From contig CAWAGQ010000007.1 of NCBI GenBank assembly GCA_963781585.1, positions 160,001 to 224,000 on the forward strand: a DNA stretch of 64,000 bases. Reading direction: 5' to 3'. Every line of letters begins with the position of its first letter. Positions within the stretch are counted from its first letter, which is position 1. Shown in pieces: positions 7,363 to 25,802 of the stretch. The notes beneath the pieces were generated by a model. The model was given only the letters and a program-made list of their open reading frames with translations. It ran no database searches and was not told where the DNA came from. A program made the translations under genes and the position numbers. Origin of the DNA: an uncultured Gemmatimonadaceae bacterium (GTDB lineage Bacteria > Gemmatimonadota > Gemmatimonadetes > Gemmatimonadales > Gemmatimonadaceae).

Positions 7363-8952
7363 ATGAGGAGGGGAGGAGTGAACGTCTTGAAGCCGTTTCT
7401 GCGCATCACCATCGCCACGCTGCTGGGCAGCGCGACGCCGCACCGCGAGATCGAGCGGCGGACCGGCGTCGATCGGAAAACCATCCGGCGCTACGCCCTG
7501 AAGGCAAATGCCCCCGGGGTGGCCACCGGCTCCGTTGCCGTCAACGACCAAACTCCCCCACCCCGGCCACCGGCTTTGGACGGGACTGCGGCCCCGGTGC
7601 GACCGGCCCTGACCGTCTCGGCGTGCGCGGCACACCGCCCGTGGATCGAGGCGCAGGTCGCGCTCGGGCGGAACGCCATGAGCATTTTCCAAGACCTGGT
7701 CGAAGCCCATGGCTTTGCCCATCGGTACAACTCCGTGAAGCGCTTTGTGGCGACGCTGAAGGCGCGCGCGCCCGAGCGCTACGACGTGTTGGAGTTCTTG
7801 CCGGGCGAAGAAGCGCAGGTCGACTACGGCCGCGGTGCGCCAACGAACCGGCCGTCGGGCACGGCCCAGAAGCGCCAGCGGCCGTACCTGTTCGTGATGA
7901 CGCTCAAGTATTCGGGGAAGAGTTTCCGGAAAGTGGTGTGGAAGACCAGCCAAGTGATCTGGGCCGAGCTGCATGAGGAAGCGTTTCGGGCGCTGGGCGG
8001 GTGTCCCCAATACATCGTGTTAGACAACTTGAAAGAAGGCGTGCTCCGCCCCGACTTGTACGAGCCGGAGCTCAACCCGGTGTACGCCGCGTTGCTGGCG
8101 CACTATGGCGTCGTGGCCGATCCGTGCCGAGTCCGTGATCCGAATCGCAAAGGGACCGTCGAGAGCGCGATTCAGCACACGCAGGGCACGGGGCTCAAGG
8201 GCCGCACCTTCGACTCGATCGAGGCGCAGAACACGTGGCTCGTGCATTGGGAGGAGCGGTGGGCCGCGCTCCGCATTCACGGGCGGAAGAAGCGGCAGGT
8301 GCTCGAGCTCTATCGGGAAGAGCAGCCGCACCTCCGCCCGCTGCCGCTCGAGGGATTTCGCTTCTTCACTCAGGGCGTGCGCACGGTCGACGACGCGGGG
8401 CTCGTGCAGATCGAAGGCTCGTATTACGCCGCGTTGCCCGCGGCGCTGCACAGCGTGGTCACCGTCCGGATCTACCCGCGCGCAATCGAGATCCTCGACC
8501 GTGAGAACCGCGTCGTGCGCCGGCATGAGAAAGCCCTGCGGAAGGGCGCCTTCGTGATGGCGGGCTCGGATCGGCTCTTCAACCCGTCCCGCGAAACCAC
8601 GCGCGTGCTGGCGCGCGTCGAGTTGATCGGCCCGCACACGGCGGCGCTCGGGCGCGCCCTCTTCGCCCAGCTCGGCCGGCCCGGCAACCGGGCCCTCTAC
8701 GGCCTGGCGAGCCTGACGCGCACCTATCCACGCGCGGACATCGAAGCGGTGTGTGAGCGGATGCTCGCGGCGCAATGTGTGTCCTACGCGGCCGTCAAAG
8801 GCGCGCTCGCCCGACGCGCGGACGCTCCGCCCGCTGACCCACCGCTCACGCAATCCGGTCCGGGCATCCGGGCCATCACCGAATATCAGGCCTTCTGGGA
8901 AATGCACTCAGAGGCGCCCGCCCCGATGCTCTCACCGGAGAACACTCCATGA
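7363..8952 (+). CDS. istA: IS21 transposase
   Basis: HTH, then EAQVDYG, VLDNLKEGV and KGTVES DDE motifs. Confidence 0.95.
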   Translation: MRRGGVNVLKPFLRITIATLLGSATPHREIERRTGVDRKTIRRYALKANAPGVATGSVAVNDQTPPPRPPALDGTAAPVRPALTVSACAAHRPWIEAQVALGRNAMSIFQDLVEAHGFAHRYNSVKRFVATLKARAPERYDVLEFLPGEEAQVDYGRGAPTNRPSGTAQKRQRPYLFVMTLKYSGKSFRKVVWKTSQVIWAELHEEAFRALGGCPQYIVLDNLKEGVLRPDLYEPELNPVYAALLAHYGVVADPCRVRDPNRKGTVESAIQHTQGTGLKGRTFDSIEAQNTWLVHWEERWAALRIHGRKKRQVLELYREEQPHLRPLPLEGFRFFTQGVRTVDDAGLVQIEGSYYAALPAALHSVVTVRIYPRAIEILDRENRVVRRHEKALRKGAFVMAGSDRLFNPSRETTRVLARVELIGPHTAALGRALFAQLGRPGNRALYGLASLTRTYPRADIEAVCERMLAAQCVSYAAVKGALARRADAPPADPPLTQSGPGIRAITEYQAFWEMHSEAPAPMLSPENTP

Positions 8953-9716
8953 CGATGTCGATCACCGAACTCGAACAGGCGTTACGCGGCCTGCGGCTGT
9001 CGGGCATGAGCGCGACGCTCCAAGCCCGCGCCCTCCAAGTCACGACGCACGAGATGGAGTTTCTCGAGGCGGTCTCGTGGCTGGTCCAAGACGAACTCGA
9101 TCGCCGCCACTCCCGGCTCCTAGAGCGGCGCTTTGCGCTCTCCGGTCTGCCCGACCGCAAAGACTTGAAGACGATCGACTGGAGCTACAACGCGCGCTTG
9201 CCCAAGCGCGACGTGCTCGAACTGGGCACGCTCCAATTCATCGACGCCAAGGAAGACGTGCTCGTCCTCGGTCCGCCCGGAACGGGAAAGAGTCATTGTG
9301 CCAAAGCGCTGGCGCTGCTCGCCGTCCAGCGTGGCTACAAGGTCTTCTACCGCGAGGCGCATCAGCTCGTCGAGGACATCGCCGAAGCGCGCGAGCTCGC
9401 GCAGCTCCGCCAGTATCGCCGCCAACTGAAGACCGCCGACCTCCTCCTGATCGATGACCTCTTCTTGCGCAAACTCCCGCCGCAGGCCGGCGATGAACTC
9501 GCGGAAGTCCTGATGAGCCGCTACGAGAAGGCCTCGACGATCGTCACCTCCAACCGGCCCCTCGAGGATTGGGCCCGTCTGCTCGGCGATGCGGTGGTCG
9601 TTACTCCACTCCTCGACCGCCTCATGCACCACGGCCATTTACTAAAGTTTGAAGGCAAGAGCTGGCGCCTGAAGGAAGCCGCCGCCCGAGTTGCGAAACG
9701 CACCTCGGCCGCCTAA
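8949..9716 (+). CDS. istB: IS21 helper ATPase
   Basis: GPPGTGKS Walker A, LLLIDD, TSNRP, LDRLMHH. Confidence 0.95.
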   Translation: MTMSITELEQALRGLRLSGMSATLQARALQVTTHEMEFLEAVSWLVQDELDRRHSRLLERRFALSGLPDRKDLKTIDWSYNARLPKRDVLELGTLQFIDAKEDVLVLGPPGTGKSHCAKALALLAVQRGYKVFYREAHQLVEDIAEARELAQLRQYRRQLKTADLLLIDDLFLRKLPPQAGDELAEVLMSRYEKASTIVTSNRPLEDWARLLGDAVVVTPLLDRLMHHGHLLKFEGKSWRLKEAAARVAKRTSAA

Positions 9717-12172: not shown

Positions 12173-12262
12173 GCCTAACGCCTAGCGTTCAGCTGCGCGG
12201 GCAGTCCAATCAAAGCGGCGAAGCCGCCACCATGGCGCCCGCGTCGGCTGCAACGCGTGGTT
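12173..12262 (-). other. attC of the PIN-TA cassette, split at R'' by an element insertion
   Basis: GCCTAAC-CGTT CAGCTG CGCGGGC...GCCCGCG T CGGCTG C AACG-GTT. The remainder TTAGGCAGCG is displaced to 14741. Confidence 0.88.
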
Positions 12263-12385
12263 GAACTCAATCCGCCTTCGGCGTCTAGCACTGCGATTTC
12301 GGTGCGTGCCCTTACTCCACCGTGGCTGATGAAGTTGGCGGAGTGATGTCCAATGTTCACGCTGAACCCCTTCAGCGAGGACACC

Positions 12386-13258
12386 ATGACACCGCTCCGC
12401 CAACGCATGATCCAGGATCTCCAGCTCCGCGGCTACTCCGATCGCACCGTCGAAGCCTACGTCCGCTCCGTCGCTCAGCTGGCCCGCTTCTATCATGCCT
12501 CACCCGACACCCTCACGGAAGAGCAGCTCCGCGACTACCTCCTTCACCTCACCACCGTTCAGAAGGTCGCCCGGGGCACCCACACCATCGCCCTCTGCGG
12601 CCTCAAGTTCTTCTACCAGCACACGCTTGGGCGCGAGTGGATGGTCCTCAAGGTGGCCCGGCCCAAGGGGGAGAAGAAGCTCCCGGTCGTCCTGAGCCGC
12701 GGCGAGGTCTGGCAAATCCTGGATCATCTTCGACTTCCCGTCTACCGCGTCTGCCTGACGACCATCTACGCCTGCGGCCTCCGCCTCTTGGAGGGCGCCC
12801 GCCTCCAGGTCCCCGATGTCGATGGTGCCCGGAAGCTGCTCCACATTCACGGCAAGCGCCGCAAGGATCGCTACGTCCCGCTCCCGGACGCCACCCTCGC
12901 GCTGTTGCGAGAGCACTGGCGGACGCACCGTAATCCCCTCTGGCTCTTCCCCACGATCACCCGATCCCATGCCGGCGTCCTGAGCGACCCGGCCGTGGGC
13001 CCCATCTCCCGCGCCAGCCTTCAGAGCGCCTTCGTCCGTGCTGTCAGGGCCAGCGGTATCCACAAGCGCGCGCACGTCCACACGCTCCGGCACAGCTACG
13101 CCACGCACCTGCTGGAGGCCGGTGTCAATCTGCGATTGATCCAGGAGTATCTGGGCCACACCAGTCCCAGAACAACCGCCATCTACACCCACCTCACCCG
13201 GGAGCTCCACGACGCCGCGCTGAGTCCGATCAACGATCTCATGGCGCGTCGCTCTTGA
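12386..13258 (+). CDS. Tyrosine recombinase (IntI/Xer-like, no integron insertion domain)
   Basis: YACGLR, GKRRKDR, HTLRHSYATHLLE, LGH...TAIY. GAGGA ribosome-binding site upstream. Confidence 0.95.
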   Translation: MTPLRQRMIQDLQLRGYSDRTVEAYVRSVAQLARFYHASPDTLTEEQLRDYLLHLTTVQKVARGTHTIALCGLKFFYQHTLGREWMVLKVARPKGEKKLPVVLSRGEVWQILDHLRLPVYRVCLTTIYACGLRLLEGARLQVPDVDGARKLLHIHGKRRKDRYVPLPDATLALLREHWRTHRNPLWLFPTITRSHAGVLSDPAVGPISRASLQSAFVRAVRASGIHKRAHVHTLRHSYATHLLEAGVNLRLIQEYLGHTSPRTTAIYTHLTRELHDAALSPINDLMARRS

Positions 13259-13305
13259 GTCGTTAGGCCCGTCGGTTCAGACAGCCACTGCCCCCGAGAC
13301 GGGCC

Positions 13306-14475
13306 GTGGTGGAGCTCGCGGACATCCTCCGCAGGGCGGGGCCCGAGTATCTGCGGACCCACGCCGGACCGCTCCTGCCCTCCCACCGGAGGGCCATGAA
13401 CGACATCGTCCAGTGTCGCACACCGGCCCTCGGTGGCTCGCTCTACCGCTGCGACGAGTGCGCTGCCCTCGCGTACCGCTACCACTCCTGCCGCAACCGC
13501 CACTGTCCCACGTGCCAGGACGATCGGGCCCAGAGATGGTTGGAGCGAGTCCGGCAGCGGCTTCTCCACACCGGCCACTACCTCCTCACGTTCACCCTCC
13601 CACAGGGGCTGCGGTCCGTCGCCCGATCGCACCAGCGCCTGGTATACGCCGCCCTTCTACGCGAAGCAGCTGCCACTGTCCTCACGCTCTGTAAGGACCC
13701 GAACTGGGTGGGCGGCACTCCCGCCATCCTCGCCGTACTCCACACCTGGTCGCGCACCCTGGAGCACCATCCCCACGTCCACCTCCTCGTCAGCGCCGGC
13801 GGCCTCGGCGCGGACGGCACGGCCTGGATCAAGCCCGCTCATTCTCGTTTCCTCGTCCCGGGCTACATGCTCTCCCCGATCTTCCGGGCGAAGATGCGCG
13901 ACGCGTTCGCACGAGCCGGCCTCGCCGGCGAGGTCGATCCCGGCGTGTGGACCCACCGCTGGACGGTCCACGTCAAGGCCATCGGCACCGGGCAGCACGC
14001 CGCACTCTATCTCTCCCGCTACATCTACCGCGTCGCCCTCACCAACCACCGCATCGAACGCTTCAGCAATGATCGCGTCACCTTCCGCTATACCCACGCA
14101 CGCACCGGGGAGACCCGGCGCCTGACGCTGCCGGTGAACACCTTCATCGGCCGTTTCCTCCAGCACGTCCTCCCCCGAGGCTTCACCAAGGTCCGCTCCT
14201 ATGGTCTCCTGAGCCCCGGCCGCCGCACGCAGCTGGAACGGGCCCGCGATCTCCTCGAGCTTCACGCTCGCGACGGCGTCCCGAAGTCCGCGAGCAACAT
14301 CCCGGCGCAGACTCCGGTCGCGCACGACCAGCCACCAACCGCGCCGGACCCCTGCTGCCCGGTCTGTCGGCGCGGTCGCCTCGTGGTCATCGACCACTTC
14401 ACCCGATCGCGCGCGCCGCCGGACTCGTGGTCCTCGCCGTGCTCCACCCCACCGACTGCCACAGTCGCCGCATGA
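13306..14475 (+). CDS. IS91-family HUH (Y2) transposase
   Basis: SCRNRHCPTCQ zinc domain, HPHVH HUH motif, YLSRY. Confidence 0.93.
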   Translation: MVELADILRRAGPEYLRTHAGPLLPSHRRAMNDIVQCRTPALGGSLYRCDECAALAYRYHSCRNRHCPTCQDDRAQRWLERVRQRLLHTGHYLLTFTLPQGLRSVARSHQRLVYAALLREAAATVLTLCKDPNWVGGTPAILAVLHTWSRTLEHHPHVHLLVSAGGLGADGTAWIKPAHSRFLVPGYMLSPIFRAKMRDAFARAGLAGEVDPGVWTHRWTVHVKAIGTGQHAALYLSRYIYRVALTNHRIERFSNDRVTFRYTHARTGETRRLTLPVNTFIGRFLQHVLPRGFTKVRSYGLLSPGRRTQLERARDLLELHARDGVPKSASNIPAQTPVAHDQPPTAPDPCCPVCRRGRLVVIDHFTRSRAPPDSWSSPCSTPPTATVAA

Positions 14476-14750
14476 TCCGCGCGCGTGGTCCGGCGAAGCC
14501 GCGCCCCATGATCGCCGGAGCGCACGGCCAACGCTGCGCCGGCCTCAATCGCGCGCGGCTGGTCCGGTGCGCGGCCCCCGGTCTGGGCTCGGCAGGCCGC
14601 CTGACGCTCGCTTCGCTGGGCGTCCTGGACGTCGCCTCGGGTCACGCACCCGCCTGAAACTCCAAGGCCCTGCCGCGGGGCGGACTGAGTTCAACCCCAG
14701 ATTGTGCCGCGGCTATCGCGCGGCACGAATCTTTACTTCGTTAGGCAGCG

Positions 14751-14972
14751 TCACGCCGGACGTCGCGCGTCGCGAACCAGCGCGACGATCTCGTCCCGAG
14801 ACCACTTGAGGTTCAATCCCTTGACGTCCAGTGGCGAGCCGGTGCGCGCTTCCGGCTGCAACACAAACACCTGGCCGTCGCGCCGGCGAATCCGGACCGC
14901 GCCGTCGCGCCGCGCTCGCTCTAAGAGCGCGGCGAGCCGTTGGCGCGCCTCCGAGTACGTGTACTCCTTCAT
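14751..14972 (-). CDS. Phd/YefM-like antitoxin
   Basis: MKEYTYSEARQRLAALLERA...VRIRRRDG. ATGA-coupled to the PIN toxin. Confidence 0.85.
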   Translation of the reverse strand: MKEYTYSEARQRLAALLERARRDGAVRIRRRDGQVFVLQPEARTGSPLDVKGLNLKWSRDEIVALVRDARRPA

Positions 14973-15367
14973 GTGGGTAGCTCCAGATGTTGGACCCCCG
15001 CCGCGTCTGCTGCGCGACCGAGCGCTTGATCCAGCGTGAGCAACGGCGCGCGCTGAGTGAGGGCGCACGTCACGAGGTAGGCGTCGTAGGCGTAGAGGCC
15101 ATGCTCAGCCGCGATCTCGAGCGCGAGCGCCAGGTCAACCTCCAAGAAGCGGATAGGAATACGTTCATAGGCCTCGAGCACCTGTTGCACCTCGCCCCGC
15201 GCGATCCGACGCCGTTTCAGCAAGGCCGATAGCGCATTGCCGACTTCCCAGTGGACGGAGGCTGGTGCCACCAGGTCGGCGCGCTGGGTTGCGCGGACGA
15301 GGCGGGGGCGTTCCGGTTCGCTCGTGAGGACGGCGATGAGCGCCGAGGTGTCGATGACAATGAGCAC
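14969..15367 (-). CDS. VapC-like PIN toxin
   Basis: VIDTSAL...WEVGNAL...YAYDAY...LLTLD. Confidence 0.9.
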   Translation of the reverse strand: MLIVIDTSALIAVLTSEPERPRLVRATQRADLVAPASVHWEVGNALSALLKRRRIARGEVQQVLEAYERIPIRFLEVDLALALEIAAEHGLYAYDAYLVTCALTQRAPLLTLDQALGRAADAAGVQHLELPT

Positions 15368-15435
15368 TACATAACGTACAATTGTACAAGCGCCTGCGCA
15401 ACCCCGACGGCATGCACGCCACTCGCCTCATCGCT

Positions 15436-15546
15436 GCCTAACGCCCGCAATTCTGCTGCGGCGCGATCACAACAATGCGGCTGGCGAATGGAATGAGCCA
15501 GCCGCGCACCGCATTATGCGCCGACAGCAGCAATTGCTCGTTGTGC
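15436..15546 (-). other. attC site
   Basis: GCCTAAC-GCAATT CTGCTG CGGCGC...GCGCCG A CAGCAG C AATTGC-GTTGTGC. Confidence 0.92.
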
Positions 15547-15819
15547 CGCGCGGCGTAGAAGAAGCGGAACCACCAGGGCGTCGCGCTCGCGGCGCCGGCA
15601 TGGACACCGGTCTGTCCACCCTCCGCAAAGTGCACATCGGAGAGCGCGTCAGCGAACGCTTTCGCGGACTCGAAGCGATCGGCGGGGAGTTCTCAAGTGG
15701 CGGTCGTGCTTGAGGTCCTGGGCGAGGTAGACGGTGGTCATGCCGCCCTGACCGAGTTATTCCTCGATCCTGCAGCGGCCGGCAAGAGCGGCGTTGAGCC
15801 GTTCGGTATTGTTTCTCAT
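15547..15819 (-). pseudogene. Internally deleted third Ser/Thr kinase
   Basis: MRNNTERLNAALAGRCRIEE*LGQGGMTTVYLAQDLKHDR is joined to PADRFESAKAFADAL. Confidence 0.85.
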
Positions 15820-18463
15820 TTTGCTGCTCCGGTCACGTTCTCGAACACCACAACGCGATCTGGCAACACCCGGCCCAGCTCTCGATGAAACACGAAACGT
15901 TGGTCGTCAGCTGCAAGGCTGTATTCGACCACAAGGGATAGCGAGCGAAACCGCTCCGCTGAAAACAGGACGTGTGGTCTATCGAACACGAATGTCGGCC
16001 CGGGCGTCAGCGGCACGCTCACCATGTTGGCGTTGCCGTCGCGGAAGAACAGCTCGCGGCCACTGTGACTCCACACTGGGTCCGACCCGCCGTCCGGCGA
16101 CACCAGCCAATTGCCGTCGCTCGTGTTCGGGAAGGGCCGCACCCGGACCTGCGCCCGGCCGGTTTCGAGCGTGGTGTACGCCAACCAGCGCCCGTCCGGC
16201 GAGACCGCCGGTTGCGATTCCTGGTACGGCGTGACCACCAGCGGGACTCGCGTGGTGTCACCGGTGCGGCGCACGCCGATCAGGTCGGAGGAGCCGCCAC
16301 CACCGTTGCGATACACGATCCAGCGATTGTCCGCGGTGAAAAAGACTTCGTGCACCTGCTCCGGATCGTAGAGCAGGGGTCGCTCGGGCTCCGACGCATC
16401 GGCGCGACGGATGTACGCCTCGCGCTTGCCGGCGCGATCCGCCATGTAGGCGACGGAGGTTCCGTCAGGTGTCCATTGCGGCCGGATGCCGCCATTGAAG
16501 CTCAACTGCGTCATCCGCCCGTTGTCCAGTTGCCGCACCCACACCTGCCCGCCGCGTGTTACCGCGAGCCGGCGACCATCGGGTGAGAGCTTGAAGGCGC
16601 CGTTCGGTGTCAGCTGGTCGTTCCAGCCGGGGTCCACCGGGCGGACCACGCCTTGTCGCGTGACCCAGACGACGTCAGTGGTGTCGTGAGCGTCGCTTTC
16701 CGCCATGTAGATCAGCGTGCCTTGCGACGACGTGGTGAAGTCGGGAACGAAGTCAGGCGCGCCCACTGACCCGAATACGACGCGCTCGACAAGCATCCGT
16801 GGCTCACCGGACAAACGCAGGTTGCGGGCGTCAAACGACTGGATCATCAGCGCACCGTTGCGCTCGGGCGCAAACACCAGGTATCCCGGCACATACTCGG
16901 CGTACGATCCGCGGGTCAGCACACGGTACTTGCCGGTGGCCTGGTCGGCGATGGCGATCTCAGAGCGCGCCGCATTCGCCCGATACTTGATGACGAAGAG
17001 GATGCCACGCCCGTCGGGCAGCGCGCACGGAAAGACGTGGTCGTCCTCGCCCGCCGCCGAGTCCACCGTGGTGAAGCGAACCGGCGTGCCGCCCTGCGCG
17101 GACACCTTCACGATGCCGGTGCGGCCGGAACCGTGAGCGTAGATGAACCCATCGGACGACCACGTCGCGCCGGCGTAGCCAATCCCGGTCGTGGCCACCG
17201 GAACCACAGGTCCGCCGTCCAATGGCACGACCTTGATGGTGCCGCGCGGACTCACGAAGCCGATCTTCGCGTTGTCGGGCGAGAAAAACGGAACTTCGGC
17301 ACCCTCCGTACCGGCGATCTCGACCGGCGACAACTGGTCGCGTGGCAGGACGAACAGCCGCCGCTCACCGCCCGCACCCTCGTGCAGGTACGCCAGGCGT
17401 GAGCCGTCCGGCGACAGTGCGATGCGGCGGAACCAGGCGCTCACCTCCCGCCCCTCAGGAAGTTGGAGCATGTACCGTCGCACGGGCGACTCCGGCGACG
17501 CACGTGTCCCACGCCAGCCCCACGCCGCCAGCGCTAGCGCGACGACGCCAACGGCGGCCACGGCAACGAACACGGGGTCGCGGAACCTGCCCAGGGCGGA
17601 TGCGGGCTGCACGCGCGTGGTTCCCGCTGCGGTGAATGCCGGGTTGACCAGGGCATCGGCAAACGCCTTGGCGGAGTCGAAGCGATCGGCCGGCACCTTC
17701 TCGAGCGCCTTGCGCAGTGCGTCGGCGACGTTGGGTGGCACCGACTTGCGGTGCTGCGTCACATCGCCGGCCGGCTCGGCGATGATCTTCATGATGATCT
17801 GCTGCGCGCTGCCACCCAGGTGCGGCGGCTGGCCAGCGAGCATCTCGTAGAGCACCGATGCCAGCGAGTAAATGTCGCTGCGACCGGTGATCTCCTTCTC
17901 CGCAGTGGCTTGCTCGGGCGACATGTAGTGCGGCGTGCCGAGCGAGAGGCCGGTCTCGGTCATGCGTCCGCCGGCGGCGGCAGAGACAGCGAGCGCAATG
18001 CCGAAGTCGGCCACCATGGGGCGACCGTCGTGGAGCAGGATGTTCTCGGGCTTGATGTCGCGGTGGATGACGCCGTGGCGGTGGGCGTAGTCCAGCGCGT
18101 CAGCGACCTGCGTGGTGATGCGAACGGCTTCGTCGACGCCGAGTTGTGTTTCGCGATCGAGTTTCCCGCGCAGGGTCTCCCCTTCTATATATGGCATCAC
18201 GTAGTACAGGAATCCGTCCGCGGTGCCGGAGTCGAAGAGCGGCAGGATGTGCGGGTGCTGGAGCGCGGCGGTGGTCTTGATCTCCACGACGAACCGTTCC
18301 GCGCCGAGCACGGCGGCGAGCTCGGGCTTCAGGACTTTGACGGCGACCTTGCGGTCGTGCTTGAGGTCGGCGGCGAGGTAGACGGTGGCCATGCCGCCCT
18401 GACCGAGCTGCTTCTCGATCTTGTAGCGACCCGCGAGTGCCGCGTTGAGGCGCTCGGTGCCGC

Positions 18464-18467
<4 letters not shown>
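15816..18467 (-). CDS. Ser/Thr protein kinase with TM helix and TolB-like propeller
   Basis: LGQGGMATV, HRDIKPEN, DFG, SPE, then SPDG repeats. Confidence 0.95.
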
Positions 18468-21094
<2,627 letters not shown>

Positions 21095-21278
21095 TGGGCG
21101 CTAGTGCAGCCGGCGGTCGGGCTCGGCACGATTGCAATATGGCGCTGGGCGGCCCGCCCAGCGAGCGATCCTGAATTCGACGAAGGGCGCGAAGGATAGT
21201 GGCGCCATCCTTGCTCTTGCCCGTTCAGCTGCGGCTATTCACCAAACGCAGCGAGAGGCTCGATGCCGGATGACGTCG

Positions 21279-21386
21279 GCACAACGGACTGGCAATAAGC
21301 TGCGGTGCAGTTCAACCGTTGGTCGCCGTGTCGCAACACGGCGGCCTTCCAGAGCCTGCGCCGGCTGCTTCATTGCCTTGTTAGGC
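21279..21386 (-). other. attC site
   Basis: GCACAAC-GGCAAT AAGCTG...CTGCTT C ATTGCC-GTTAGGC. Confidence 0.88.
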
Positions 21387-21596
21387 AGCCACCACCACAT
21401 AGGTGGCAATCGTCTGCCCCGCCGGAACCGGCGCCCCATCCTCGCGGAGGCCGTCAAGATGGAGCAGAATCGCTTCGCGCATGTTCGCCTCCACGTCGGT
21501 TCGCGAAGCGCCCGTCGCCACACAGCCGGGAAGGTCGGGCGAATAGGCGGAAAACCCCGTGCTCGTTGGCTCGAGTACGATCAGGTAACGATGCAT
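21381..21596 (-). CDS. hicB: HicB antitoxin
   Basis: FSAYSPDLPGCVATG...MREAILLHLDGL. Confidence 0.9.
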   Translation of the reverse strand: MHRYLIVLEPTSTGFSAYSPDLPGCVATGASRTDVEANMREAILLHLDGLREDGAPVPAGQTIATYVVVAA

Positions 21597-21600
21597 GGTC

Positions 21601-21801
21601 CTATGCTCCTGGCGGCGGCTTGAGCCCGGCCTGTTTCAGAATGCTGCCCAGCGTGCCCGGAGCCAGGTCGTCGTTGGACGATCCGGCCACCGTCACGCGG
21701 CCCGGCTTCGTGGGATGCTTGAATTGTTGATGACTCCCCTTCGTGCGGGCAAGGTACCAGCCGTCTTCCAGCAGGAGTCGGAGCACGTCACGAACTTTCA
21801 T
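21601..21801 (-). CDS. hicA: HicA toxin
   Basis: DGWYLARTKGSHQQFKHPTKPGRVTV...GTLGSILKQAGL. Confidence 0.93.
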   Translation of the reverse strand: MKVRDVLRLLLEDGWYLARTKGSHQQFKHPTKPGRVTVAGSSNDDLAPGTLGSILKQAGLKPPPGA

Positions 21802-21918
21802 CAGGGCAACAACTTACGCGTCACCCATCCCGGTGGCCAGTCTTCCGTCGAAGCATACTCGCGGGGCCCGACCGGGTCCCGAGCACAGCCACAAGATGGC
21901 CCGATATTGGGCGGGTCT

Positions 21919-21950
21919 GTCTAAGGCCCAGCGTTCAAGGCGAGTTAGGC
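21919..21950 (-). other. Collapsed attC (internal deletion)
   Basis: GTCTAAG...GTTAGGC spans only 32 bp. GTTAGGCGGCGAC complements the cassette start at 22749-22761. Confidence 0.7.
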
Positions 21951-21991
21951 GGCGACGATTCCGGTGCCTCGCGGACGCCCCGCCAATGGCA

Positions 21992-22597
21992 TCAGTCGAA
22001 GCGAACCGCTTGGAGCTTGTAGGTGTGCCCGGACGCCAGGATGACAATCGTATCCGCGGCCATTGTTGCGGGCACGGCATGGCCCGACGCGTCCATCAGG
22101 AGGAGCGCGTCGCGCGTCCAGGAGTACGTTCCCGATGACACCGTGACGTCCAGCGTCCGCGCTGAGTCACCTGGGAAGTCGACGCGCTGGGTAAGCACCA
22201 GAGTATACCCTCCCACACGGCAGGGAATCATCAGGTACGCGACTGTGTCCCCCACAGTCACCAACCCGTTCAAATGCAGAACCGCTCCGTTGGGAATCTC
22301 GGTCACACAGGCTCCGGACATGGGCCCCGCGGGCGTGAAGACGGTATCCGAATAGTGCGCGTAGCGCTGGAACGTCAGCGTGCCGGAGAGGATGCTAACC
22401 CGGGCACCTGCCGAGTCGACGGTGCAGCAGGGAACCGTCGCCGCATCGACCGTTCGGAGCGAATCGAGGGCCACGACGGAACCGAGGTCCACGGTAACGG
22501 ACGCGAGGTCCGAGGCGACGGAGGTGGGCGATTCGCACGCGCCCGCCAGCAGAGCGGCAGCGGATAGAGCAACCAGGATAGAAAGTGGTCGGCGCAT
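21992..22597 (-). CDS. Cassette lipoprotein
   Basis: MRRPLSILVALSAAALLAGAC lipobox. Confidence 0.75.
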   Translation of the reverse strand: MRRPLSILVALSAAALLAGACESPTSVASDLASVTVDLGSVVALDSLRTVDAATVPCCTVDSAGARVSILSGTLTFQRYAHYSDTVFTPAGPMSGACVTEIPNGAVLHLNGLVTVGDTVAYLMIPCRVGGYTLVLTQRVDFPGDSARTLDVTVSSGTYSWTRDALLLMDASGHAVPATMAADTIVILASGHTYKLQAVRFD

Positions 22598-22754
22598 GGC
22601 TCGGGCTCCATCGAGACTGTTCTGTAGTATCGACCCCAAGCCAGCGGCTCGGTATCCGCTTATCCCCGACGGGGGGTCGAGCCTTGACCGACCGAGGGCT
22701 GTGGTGACGAAGTGACAACATCACCAGCGTCCGCACGCGCCAGCGGAAGTCGCC

Positions 22755-22861
22755 GCCTAACGCTCCAGCATAAGCTGCCCCGCATCCAACAATCGCGCGC
22801 GCTGGCGCAGCACAGCGCGCGCTTCCTTCAGAGTATGCGGGGTCAGCTTCATGCTGTTGTT
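22755..22861 (-). other. attC of the first cassette, split at R'' by an element insertion
   Basis: GCCTAAC-CAGCAT AAGCTG CCCCGCAT...ATGCGGGG T CAGCTT C ATGCTG-GTT. The remainder TTAGACAC is at 25340. Confidence 0.9.
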
Positions 22862-22984
22862 GAACTCAATCCGCCTTCGGCGTCTAGCACTGCGATTTCG
22901 GTGCGTGCCCTTACTCCACCGTGGCTGATGAAGTTGGCGGAGTGATGTCCAATGTTCACGCTGAACCCCTTCAGCGAGGACACC

Positions 22985-23857
22985 ATGACACCGCTCCGCC
23001 AACGCATGATCCAGGATCTCCAGCTCCGCGGCTACTCCGATCGCACCGTCGAAGCCTACGTCCGCTCCGTCGCTCAGCTGGCCCGCTTCTATCATGCCTC
23101 ACCCGACACCCTCACGGAAGAGCAGCTCCGCGACTACCTCCTTCACCTCACCACCGTTCAGAAGGTCGCCCGGGGCACCCACACCATCGCCCTCTGCGGC
23201 CTCAAGTTCTTCTACCAGCACACGCTTGGGCGCGAGTGGATGGTCCTCAAGGTGGCCCGGCCCAAGGGGGAGAAGAAGCTCCCGGTCGTCCTGAGCCGCG
23301 GCGAGGTCTGGCAAATCCTGGATCATCTTCGACTTCCCGTCTACCGCGTCTGCCTGACGACCATCTACGCCTGCGGCCTCCGCCTCTTGGAGGGCGCCCG
23401 CCTCCAGGTCCCCGATGTCGATGGTGCCCGGAAGCTGCTCCACATTCACGGCAAGCGCCGCAAGGATCGCTACGTCCCGCTCCCGGACGCCACCCTCGCG
23501 CTGTTGCGAGAGCACTGGCGGACGCACCGTAATCCCCTCTGGCTCTTCCCCACGATCACCCGATCCCATGCCGGCGTCCTGAGCGACCCGGCCGTGGGCC
23601 CCATCTCCCGCGCCAGCCTTCAGAGCGCCTTCGTCCGTGCTGTCAGGGCCAGCGGTATCCACAAGCGCGCGCACGTCCACACGCTCCGGCACAGCTACGC
23701 CACGCACCTGCTGGAGGCCGGTGTCAATCTGCGATTGATCCAGGAGTATCTGGGCCACACCAGTCCCAGAACAACCGCCATCTACACCCACCTCACCCGG
23801 GAGCTCCACGACGCCGCGCTGAGTCCGATCAACGATCTCATGGCGCGTCGCTCTTGA
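22985..23857 (+). CDS. Tyrosine recombinase (copy 2)
   Basis: Identical translation to 12386-13258. Confidence 0.95.
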   Translation: MTPLRQRMIQDLQLRGYSDRTVEAYVRSVAQLARFYHASPDTLTEEQLRDYLLHLTTVQKVARGTHTIALCGLKFFYQHTLGREWMVLKVARPKGEKKLPVVLSRGEVWQILDHLRLPVYRVCLTTIYACGLRLLEGARLQVPDVDGARKLLHIHGKRRKDRYVPLPDATLALLREHWRTHRNPLWLFPTITRSHAGVLSDPAVGPISRASLQSAFVRAVRASGIHKRAHVHTLRHSYATHLLEAGVNLRLIQEYLGHTSPRTTAIYTHLTRELHDAALSPINDLMARRS

Positions 23858-23904
23858 GTCGTTAGGCCCGTCGGTTCAGACAGCCACTGCCCCCGAGACG
23901 GGCC

Positions 23905-25074
23905 GTGGTGGAGCTCGCGGACATCCTCCGCAGGGCGGGGCCCGAGTATCTGCGGACCCACGCCGGACCGCTCCTGCCCTCCCACCGGAGGGCCATGAAC
24001 GACATCGTCCAGTGTCGCACACCGGCCCTCGGTGGCTCGCTCTACCGCTGCGACGAGTGCGCTGCCCTCGCGTACCGCTACCACTCCTGCCGCAACCGCC
24101 ACTGTCCCACGTGCCAGGACGATCGGGCCCAGAGATGGTTGGAGCGAGTCCGGCAGCGGCTTCTCCACACCGGCCACTACCTCCTCACGTTCACCCTCCC
24201 ACAGGGGCTGCGGTCCGTCGCCCGATCGCACCAGCGCCTGGTATACGCCGCCCTTCTACGCGAAGCAGCTGCCACTGTCCTCACGCTCTGTAAGGACCCG
24301 AACTGGGTGGGCGGCACTCCCGCCATCCTCGCCGTACTCCACACCTGGTCGCGCACCCTGGAGCACCATCCCCACGTCCACCTCCTCGTCAGCGCCGGCG
24401 GCCTCGGCGCGGACGGCACGGCCTGGATCAAGCCCGCTCATTCTCGTTTCCTCGTCCCGGGCTACATGCTCTCCCCGATCTTCCGGGCGAAGATGCGCGA
24501 CGCGTTCGCACGAGCCGGCCTCGCCGGCGAGGTCGATCCCGGCGTGTGGACCCACCGCTGGACGGTCCACGTCAAGGCCATCGGCACCGGGCAGCACGCC
24601 GCACTCTATCTCTCCCGCTACATCTACCGCGTCGCCCTCACCAACCACCGCATCGAACGCTTCAGCAATGATCGCGTCACCTTCCGCTATACCCACGCAC
24701 GCACCGGGGAGACCCGGCGCCTGACGCTGCCGGTGAACACCTTCATCGGCCGTTTCCTCCAGCACGTCCTCCCCCGAGGCTTCACCAAGGTCCGCTCCTA
24801 TGGTCTCCTGAGCCCCGGCCGCCGCACGCAGCTGGAACGGGCCCGCGATCTCCTCGAGCTTCACGCTCGCGACGGCGTCCCGAAGTCCGCGAGCAACATC
24901 CCGGCGCAGACTCCGGTCGCGCACGACCAGCCACCAACCGCGCCGGACCCCTGCTGCCCGGTCTGTCGGCGCGGTCGCCTCGTGGTCATCGACCACTTCA
25001 CCCGATCGCGCGCGCCGCCGGACTCGTGGTCCTCGCCGTGCTCCACCCCACCGACTGCCACAGTCGCCGCATGA
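23905..25074 (+). CDS. IS91-family HUH transposase (copy 2)
   Basis: Identical translation to 13306-14475. Confidence 0.93.
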   Translation: MVELADILRRAGPEYLRTHAGPLLPSHRRAMNDIVQCRTPALGGSLYRCDECAALAYRYHSCRNRHCPTCQDDRAQRWLERVRQRLLHTGHYLLTFTLPQGLRSVARSHQRLVYAALLREAAATVLTLCKDPNWVGGTPAILAVLHTWSRTLEHHPHVHLLVSAGGLGADGTAWIKPAHSRFLVPGYMLSPIFRAKMRDAFARAGLAGEVDPGVWTHRWTVHVKAIGTGQHAALYLSRYIYRVALTNHRIERFSNDRVTFRYTHARTGETRRLTLPVNTFIGRFLQHVLPRGFTKVRSYGLLSPGRRTQLERARDLLELHARDGVPKSASNIPAQTPVAHDQPPTAPDPCCPVCRRGRLVVIDHFTRSRAPPDSWSSPCSTPPTATVAA

Positions 25075-25339
25075 TCCGCGCGCGTGGTCCGGCGAAGCCG
25101 CGCCCCATGATCGCCGGAGCGCACGGCCAACGCTGCGCCGGCCTCAATCGCGCGCGGCTGGTCCGGTGCGCGGCCCCCGGTCTGGGCTCGGCAGGCCGCC
25201 TGACGCTCGCTTCGCTGGGCGTCCTGGACGTCGCCTCGGGTCACGCACCCGCCTGAAACTCCAAGGCCCTGCCGCGGGGCGGACTGAGTTCAACCCCAGA
25301 TTGTGCCGCGGCTATCGCGCGGCACGAATCTTTACTTCG

Positions 25340-25753
25340 TTAGACACCGTGCGCCGCGCGTCCGCGCATGCGCCACGCCGTCGCGGCCAGCCGTCGAATG
25401 AGATCCACTGCAATCCCGAACGCCACGAGCGCGGCTACCATGAGTGGCCAGCCGCTCACCTGCCGGGTGCCAAGGAGCAGCGCAGTGACGCCCAGCCAGA
25501 GCAGCGCGGCTCGCCAGAGTGCGCGCCGATCGCGTGGAAGCGCCAGCCAGGTCGCACCCAGCAGCAGCACGGCGGTGCCGACGCTGTAGCCGGCAGTGAC
25601 GGCGGCGGCGTGAGGGTCGGCGATCGGTGCCACTGGACCCGGTGCGCGCGCGACGCTCACCCCGACGATCGCCACGAACGCAGCGGTAACGAGCCACACC
25701 GCGGTGAGGACGCTGAGCGTCACGATGCGAAGCCATGGAGGAACCACACTCAT
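25340..25753 (-). CDS. First cassette gene, small membrane protein
   Basis: About four hydrophobic segments. Stop TAA lies within R'' (GTCTAAC). Confidence 0.75.
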   Translation of the reverse strand: MSVVPPWLRIVTLSVLTAVWLVTAAFVAIVGVSVARAPGPVAPIADPHAAAVTAGYSVGTAVLLLGATWLALPRDRRALWRAALLWLGVTALLLGTRQVSGWPLMVAALVAFGIAVDLIRRLAATAWRMRGRAAHGV

Positions 25754-25782
25754 CGCGCAATGCGTTTCGGTGTTCCGCGTGT

Positions 25783-25802
25783 GTCTAACAAATATTGGAC
25801 CC
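25783..25802 (-). other. Putative attI core
   Basis: Minus strand GGGTCCAATATTT-GTTAGAC with no attC stem upstream. GTTAGACAC matches the R'' of the first cassette. Confidence 0.7.

Follow-up and report, generated by a model that had tools for sequence, protein, structure and literature searches.

To our knowledge, two kinds of element have so far been known to invade the attC sites of integrons, the IS1111-attC insertion sequences and the group IIC-attC introns. The former carry a DEDD-type transposase and have neither an HUH transposase nor a tyrosine recombinase. Here, we describe an element from a 64,000-nucleotide stretch of the genome of an uncultured Gemmatimonadaceae bacterium (GenBank assembly GCA_963781585.1, contig CAWAGQ010000007.1, positions 160,001 to 224,000 of the forward strand), hereafter the window. 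The element pairs an IS91-family HUH transposase with a tyrosine recombinase related to integron integrases (IntI), and is very probably an attC-targeting IS91-integrase element. The accessible part of PMC9229058 mentions the IS1111-attC group (IS110 family) as attC-specialised insertion sequences. According to the available portion of PMC7923331, group IIC-attC introns insert at the R'' box of the attC bottom strand (TTGT/T), lie opposite to the cassettes, and also enter arrays without integrase.

Several IS91-family entries in the ISfinder list, including ISShvi3 and ISWz1, have an upstream open reading frame annotated as a "phage integrase." The accessible sections of a 2026 study (PMC13181058) state that the IS91 family produces no target duplication and that the target tetranucleotide abuts oriIS; for IS801 and IS1294, the tetranucleotide cleaved at terIS is identical to the target. 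The same sections report that the IS91 TnpA inserts only a bottom-strand single-stranded circle, and that orf121, which overlaps tnpA, improves the precision of terIS. On three plasmids, IS91 copies end in ...TTCCTATCGAT, followed by CAAG or GAAC. As far as the available text of PMC11322121 goes, ISWz1 copies flank tet(X) and other resistance genes in Weeksellaceae and form circles. The accessible part of PMC12772301 refers to attC sites at the end of ISCR28 as data not shown, and the available parts of PMC8876359 and PMC11023631 contain nothing relevant. A previous sequence-only reading of the window knew of no description of attC targeting for this type of element. The full-text literature likewise gave none for IS91-type elements beyond passing remarks, with ISfinder and TnPedia outside the search.

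An in-register comparison of the two copies in the window gave an identical run of 2485 bp with 0 mismatches (12260-14744 and 22859-25343). The run opens with GTTGAAC and closes with ...CTTTACTTC GTTAG, and the flanks are unrelated outside it. The trailing GTTAG is the conserved core-box start of the targets, GTTAGGC at one site and GTTAGAC at the other. Because these letters belong to the target core box, the element itself comprises 2480 bp, and a 3-nt GTT may be counted with one junction or the other. The sequence-only reading placed the copies at 12261-14740 and 22860-25339, which is one of the equivalent placements within this 3-nt ambiguity, and it was right that only GTT is common to both junctions.

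A whole-assembly search (17 contigs, 5.7 Mb) located a third copy on another contig, 100% identical to the first two (C13:307514-309998). The three identical copies occupy the same nucleotide of three attC contexts. Furthermore, a 162-nt contig from a public soil run (X1) represents the empty site. In it, 12259 is joined to 14740, exactly 2480 bp are absent, 3 letters are ambiguous, and there are no mismatches. X1 also holds a contig exactly matching the element interior. It was the only public run sharing words with the window (a small share), it was available as contigs and not as raw reads, and it may be the sample of origin and is therefore not independent evidence of habitat. Because of the third identical copy and the empty-site contig, the earlier worry that copy 2 might be an assembly artefact can be dismissed, and the insertion is polymorphic. 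That the repeat is an artefact or a segmental duplication, and not a mobile element, is scarcely credible. Such a reading could appeal to the 17-contig assembly with its estimated contamination of 7%, but the three copies have three different flank pairs on two long contigs, the separate empty-site contig has exact boundaries, and relatives of similar length have the same end structure. The insertion is real, precise, and polymorphic.

Both targets in the window are genuine attC sites, given their boxes, their fold, the cassette open reading frames upstream, and an R'' box complementary to the start of its own cassette (15432-15442 and 25781-25789). For scoring, we used a covariance model, R1, derived from only the 9 uninterrupted attCs of this genome. 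Their consensus fold has 19 pairs, 10 of which show compensatory changes, and two unpaired positions on the R''-L'' arm. R1 reads polarity, as the same sites score 91.9 bits on the - strand vs. 34.6 on the + strand. It is insensitive to short or AT-rich attCs, and a missing R1 match is not evidence against an attC. As strict regular-expression scans overlooked most of the genuine sites, a relaxed scan and the covariance model took their place. R1 matches the chimeric site formed by the element GTTCAAC and the remainder of attC "A" (12173-12266, 49.8 bits, E 4.6e-9) as well as the equivalent site at attC "B" (22755-22865, 46.6 bits, E 2.5e-8). It also matches at the C13 copy, and all three matches use the element-terminal GTTCAAC as the R'' box.

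When the emptied sites were joined in a script, they folded into attC-like hairpins of -32.3 and -39.8 kcal/mol. The claims of the sequence-only reading about the site agree with these results: the insertion point is the GTT/AAC of R'', excision restores an intact attC whose R'' complements its own cassette start, and the element genes oppose the array, being on the + strand with attCs and cassettes on the - strand. The host intI gene is intact, lies 500 bp from copy 2, and has the orientation of the cassettes, and the array extends from the attI-like core to the start of the window. Copy 1 sits in the attC of a PIN-toxin cassette, and copy 3 sits in the first attC after a second attI-like site. 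See Table 1 for the coordinates of all features.

Judged from its sequence, the element shows two distinct ends, one oriIS-like and one terIS-like, each with a subterminal palindrome. The left-end GTTGAAC itself matches the core box GTTRRRY. The right end begins with the left end in inverted form (14679-14695). A 5-nt spacer and a 30-nt hairpin (14701-14730) come next, then a 9-nt box, CTTTACTTC, which resembles the right end of IS91 on plasmids. New here is that the joined ends of the element fold into an attC mimic. For the scripted junction of the two ends, a fold of -24.0 kcal/mol is predicted on the strand that complements the genes. The two inverted copies form a 14-bp R stem; beyond it are an asymmetric internal loop and a hairpin that contains a single bulged base, and in this model the layout is like that of an attC.

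Because the joined ends mimic an attC, one attC becomes two complete-looking attCs on insertion. One member of the pair is a chimeric attC-like site of host R'', element hairpin, and element GTTGAAC; the other consists of element GTTCAAC and host L''-L'-R'. The relaxed scan flags both chimeric sites, and R1 flags only the latter. A search of this genome found no solo copies of the element end hairpins.

The downstream gene of the element encodes an IS91-family Y2 HUH transposase with the HUH motif, two tyrosines, and a zinc-binding domain. Its product scores 353 bits against NF033538 (cut-off of 125) and has Pfam domains PF04986 and PF14319. IS91 TnpA has counterparts of H155-P-H157, Y235, Y239, and the N-terminal Cys cluster in the alignments, where all of these are invariant. 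For the upstream recombinase, the best NCBIfam family is the integron integrase family TIGR02249, with 201.5 bits in two stretches, below the cut-off of 265. The protein is 35% identical to the host IntI and does not have the 31-aa IntI insertion, and it lies outside IntI both by the family cut-off and by the IntI-specific additional domain. Its closest solved relative is Vibrio IntI4 (2a3v), with the match split into residues 22-184 and 219-294. R144, K168, R246, H269, and Y278 are conserved in an alignment of 48 members of the recombinase family, and the catalytic motifs are intact in both element genes. A tree groups the recombinase clade with the IntI clade as sisters, away from two host Xer proteins (100/99); the tree is small, with two outgroup rows, and is therefore indicative only. 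Pfam results for the element include integrase and IS91 domains only, and no Rfam family, group II introns included, matched in the window.

The recombinase of the closest genomic relative (L004, 4501-5382, 84% identity) has His at the position of Tyr278, which is Tyr in the other 47 members.

Table 1. Features of the element, its target sites, and the host integron in the window. R1, covariance model of attC.
Feature	Position	Strand	Remarks
Element copy 1	12260..14739	+	2480 bp; bounds shift by up to 3 nt (GTT at both junctions); identical to copy 2 and the C13 copy
Element copy 2	22859..25338	+	In attC of first cassette after attI
Left end, terIS-like	12260..12290	+	GTTGAAC, then small subterminal palindrome
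Right end, oriIS-like	14679..14739	+	Inverted left-end copy, spacer, hairpin, box
IntI-like tyrosine recombinase, 301 aa	12353..13258; copy 2, 22952-23857	+	Pfam PF00589, PF13495
IS91-family Y2 HUH transposase, 389 aa	13306..14475; copy 2, 23905-25074	+	NF033538
attC "A" remainder (spacer, L'', loop, L', R' GTTAGGC)	12173..12259	-	R1
attC "A" R'' core GCCTAAC	14740..14746	-	
attC "B" remainder	22755..22858	-	R1
attC "B" R'' core GTCTAAC	25339..25345	-	
attC R'' boxes (approximate)	25345, 21386, 15546, 14746, 10979, 10232, 5854, 5055, 848	-	
attI core GTTAGAC	25789-25783	-	attI-like, downstream of intI
Host integron integrase intI, 333 aa	25858..26859	-	TIGR02249, 434.7 bits vs. cut-off 265, full length

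Relatives of the element are widespread. A scan of one genome per species gave 20 loci whose recombinases are 46-88% identical (19 of the loci were taken further). They come from Gemmatimonadota, Acidobacteriota, Chloroflexota, Rokubacteria-like, and deltaproteobacterial metagenome-assembled genomes. At least 79 further loci, with recombinases 47-87% identical, came from a metagenome scan. All counts for relatives are among the matches listed, which comprise 97 recombinase hits, 63 junctions, and 35 right ends. A transposase lies at most 400 nt downstream in 84 of the 97 recombinase hits, and a [GA]TT[GT]AAC end lies 40-220 nt upstream in 76, with most others having no upstream sequence. The stop of the recombinase gene abuts or overlaps the tnpA start in many relatives. 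Right ends of the same architecture were located in 35 loci, with element lengths of 2325-2621 bp, and the element ends are conserved across phyla.

Some relatives show unusual arrangements. In L067 (~2424) and L082 (~3143), the right end is directly followed by GTTGAAC, which could be a tandem copy, an insertion into the end site of another copy, or an assembled circle junction. In the decayed element L022 (4330-4400), the left end adjoins a hairpin module of the element type with its parts in flipped order, the 9-nt spacer coming first, and the neighbouring attCs are on the element's own strand. A copy on a Herpetosiphon plasmid has a truncated integrase. A decayed relative is also found in the present genome (C11:125375-125920), with an N-terminal fragment of the recombinase (61% identity over 36 aa), an internal deletion, and a right-end-like hairpin followed by GTTAGGC. 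Contig C13 carries two identical 1459-bp units with another IS91/ISCR-like transposase of 28% identity (L034; 329544-331002 and 333460-334918). These end in ...TTGAATTTCCTATCCCC, have flanks that do not open with GTT, and have no recombinase gene.

Next, we scored the targets of the relatives at the 63 junctions with a flank of at least about 55 nt, 3 of which are from this genome. R1 matches end exactly on the first 7 nt of the element at 19 junctions, 17 on the opposite strand and 2 (L056 and L115) on the same strand. An anchored rule requiring a stem plus GTT picked out 21 of the 63 junctions vs. 2.5% of 1500 control anchors, and by either test, 27 junctions abut a recognisable attC. On the other side of the element, 17 of 35 right flanks match GTTRRRY, vs. 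353 of 5220 (6.8%) GTT sites in the same loci. L043, L049, L063, L093, and L113 have no recognised attC on the left, yet have a canonical core box on the right flank. In the clade of the window element, which has the end GTTGAACTNAATCCGC, a test is passed by 12 of the 18 junctions that could be scored; of the other 6, 3 are attC-like by eye and 3 are not. Inspection by eye also places the Smithellaceae-type elements (L014-L021) in short attC-like sites of 55-67 nt; one Smithellaceae chromosome carries at least 4 copies (L015, L016, L018). A palindrome-vs-shuffle test, which misses short attCs and gives a lower bound, was positive at 16 of 63 junctions at p<=0.01 and at 25 of 63 at p<=0.05. Constrained-fold z-scores against shuffles (12 of 63 below z -2) were set aside, as their power is low in GC-rich DNA and even known attCs did badly.

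The left flanks of L006 and L055, on unrelated contigs, have the same 12 nt beside the left end (TATTAATTATAC read outward) followed by a perfect hairpin, and may represent a different, AT-rich class of target site.

The element is probably, in our judgement, an active member of a widespread IS91-family subgroup with an IntI-like recombinase upstream, the window clade of which homes to the R'' box of attC. On the strand complementary to the genes, which is the host attC top strand, the ori junction reads ...YAAC followed by the element, and the ter junction reads ...CAAC followed by the flank. There is no target duplication beyond the 3-nt ambiguity, and the flank next to the right end is GTT, or ATT in 2 of 35 cases. 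These junctions match an IS91-type HUH insertion in that the cut follows (Y)AAC, nothing is duplicated, and the terminal tetranucleotide resembles that of the target. Because the IS91 rules map onto the element in this way and the recombinase is in the orf121 position, we favour HUH-catalysed single-strand insertion, with the IntI-like protein as a fold-recognising partner, over exchange by the recombinase, and put its chances at nearly even.

As in IS91, the HUH transposase would nick the oriIS end on the right and release the complement of the gene strand as a single-stranded circle. The circle would then be re-inserted just 3' of (Y)AAC. On the attC top strand, this point coincides with the final base of R'', and the cut would fall between the paired R stem and the unpaired spacer. 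A single fold on that strand would be common to the ori end, the ter end, and the target, consisting of an R stem, AAC, the cut, an unpaired spacer, and an L hairpin. The recombinase, which appears to keep the IntI DNA-binding core without the domain that reads the bottom-strand extrahelical bases, may supply recognition of this shared fold or an alternative strand exchange.

The sequence-only reading proposed a different route, in which a double-stranded circle is formed and the element's own IntI-like recombinase joins the attC-like junction of the circle to the target R''. The protein would act as a mirror-image IntI on the top-strand fold, cutting RYYYAA/C at R'', and the HUH transposase would serve only for replication or copy-out. 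We consider this unlikely, though well worth weighing. It accords with a recombinase that is nearest to IntI and keeps its catalytic residues, with a crossover within the triplet where IntI cuts, and with a core box GTTRRRY/RYYYAAC in both partners; R'', used in 17 of the 19 model-scored junctions, is also the top-strand equivalent of the IntI cleavage arm. However, the ends have the ori/ter architecture of IS91 and are not two equivalent recombinase sites, and IS91 insertion needs no recombinase, according to the accessible part of PMC13181058. Elements with an ATT variant at the left end have ATT at the right junction too (L005, L100, and L011), which suits recombinase exchange but follows just as well from the IS91 rule of identical ter and target tetranucleotides. 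L004, with His for the catalytic Tyr, nonetheless has intact ends in an attC, although this is a single sequence and could be an error. The earlier claim that the element recognises attC structure and integrates by site-specific recombination can thus be divided: attC targeting is supported, with genuine attCs as targets and the same choice recurring in relatives, while for the mode of integration the junctions fit HUH insertion equally well.

The third copy offers a view of a possible second way of moving. Its left flank is the same as that of copy 1 across the entire 87-nt attC remainder, R' included, and the R'' boxes and the cassettes on both sides differ between the two copies. No other place in the genome has this remainder. 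Between the internal GTTGAAC and the host R' lies a segment that looks in every sequence feature like a cassette, and copy 3 fits its movement. From these features, it is conceivable, at somewhat less than an even chance, that host IntI can move the element body plus attC remainder as an ordinary cassette, which would explain why copy 3 shares the attC remainder of copy 1. One-ended transposition was considered for copy 3 and rejected, as the shared stretch stops at the R' box and not at the next AAC-plus-hairpin site.

It is very improbable that the element is itself merely a cassette, or was captured as one, and was inserted the "wrong" way by host IntI through rare top-strand recombination. 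The cassette-like segment, the intact intI close to copy 2, and the remainder common to copies 1 and 3 can be read in this sense, but what stays constant is the 2480-bp insertion sequence, and the attC remainders of copies 1 and 2 are not the same. All copies have this unit in common, with its boundaries at R'', not at G/TT of R', and the IntI crossover point is R', not R'', in the available portion of PMC7923331. Furthermore, the R'' position recurs in relatives from several phyla, and the integron on C13 has intI fragments only.

Five observations weigh against our account of an R''-homing element that inserts by the IS91 route. At least 30 of the 63 junctions lie in no attC recognised by our tests, and attC targeting does not hold throughout the wider family. 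These junctions belong mostly to a metagenomic clade with the end GTTGAACTAAGCGC, for which the specificity may be broader (e.g., a hairpin foot plus GTT) or the detectors too narrow. L056 and L115 sit at R', in the same sense as the array; in L056, this is because the array top strand is the element's own strand. The flanking tetranucleotide on the gene strand is GTTR, whereas IS91 copies are followed by GAAC or CAAG. Tyrosine-recombinase exchange at AA/C would give the same junctions. Finally, the cassette account of copy 3 needs a prior element-derived hairpin site at that position, and there is no solo hairpin in the genome.

A bolder view, which we regard as rather doubtful, is that IS91-integrase elements are mirror-image parasites of integrons that also make attC sites, through the circle-junction mimic, joining at R'', shuffling by IntI, and cassette genesis. 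Each insertion would split one attC into two working ones, with the IntI-derived recombinase directing or catalysing the joining at R'' of the top-strand fold. IntI would then shuffle the element body, and the element hairpin would stay in place to serve the neighbouring gene as a new attC. If IS91-type read-through also ran beyond the left end, ordinary genes would gain an attC, amounting to cassette genesis.

The rest of the array and the second integron have features of their own. The cassette whose attC holds copy 1 carries the PIN-domain toxin gene with a small upstream open reading frame (14969-15367, - strand). A large cassette of ~5.8 kb (15442-21287, - strand) lies between an R' GTTGTGC at ~21288 and the attC at 15436-15546. 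It encodes two paralogous Ser/Thr kinases (876 and 883 aa) with PD40 beta-propeller repeats, and its R'' GCACAAC is complementary to its own start. An IS21-type pair is also present in the array (7363-9716, + strand), with an istA-like gene encoding 529 aa with an rve domain and a gene for an IstB ATPase of 255 aa. The second integron (L033; C13:298994-310085) has only fragments of intI (residues 2-67 and 283-333), and its attI-like core at 299504 is followed by ~8 kb before the first attC, which holds copy 3. GC skew, used for placing the attC strands relative to replication, was weak and had opposite directions for the two arrays.

This looks like an undescribed way of parasitising integrons. 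If true, the element would represent a third kind of attC invader after IS1111-attC and group IIC-attC introns, and the first to carry a close relative of the integron integrase. It may also explain the role of the extra recombinase in part of the IS91 family. Through its attC-mimicking ends, it offers a route, open to test, by which cassette arrays could be reshaped and new cassettes perhaps created, the latter a long-standing question, and the link of ISWz1 to tet(X) means that this biology may bear on the assembly of resistance genes.

In general, the element is most like IS91, IS801, IS1294, and ISCR, with which it shares a Y2 HUH transposase with an N-terminal zinc domain. Like IS91, it has dissimilar ends with subterminal palindromes, a similar right-end box, no target duplication beyond the 3-nt ambiguity, and a short fixed target beside the right end that resembles its own left-end terminus. 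The placement of the upstream gene is orf121-like, as it abuts or overlaps tnpA in many relatives. Unlike in IS91, that gene encodes a 300-aa tyrosine recombinase, the target is the GTT of the attC core box and not CTTG/GTTC, and an inverted left-end copy lies ~45 nt inside the right end, which makes the joined ends attC-like. The two-gene architecture is the same as that of the integrase-bearing IS91 entries ISShvi3 and ISWz1. The accessible literature on those entries does not describe an attC target, the R'' position, an orientation rule, or attC-mimicking ends.

Group IIC-attC introns share their box (to within 1-2 nt) and their orientation with our element; however, they consist of a ribozyme and a reverse transcriptase, whereas the element has an HUH transposase and a tyrosine recombinase. 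IS1111-attC elements differ in that neither of their domains is in the Pfam results for the element. The likeness to IntI and its cassettes lies in the recombinase, for which IntI is the nearest family and structure, and in ends with GTTRRRY/RYYYAAC, an unpaired spacer, and a bulged hairpin. The differences are that the recombinase is below the IntI cut-off and without the IntI insertion, and that the exchange point of the element lies between two R'' boxes, not between two R' boxes or between attI and R'.

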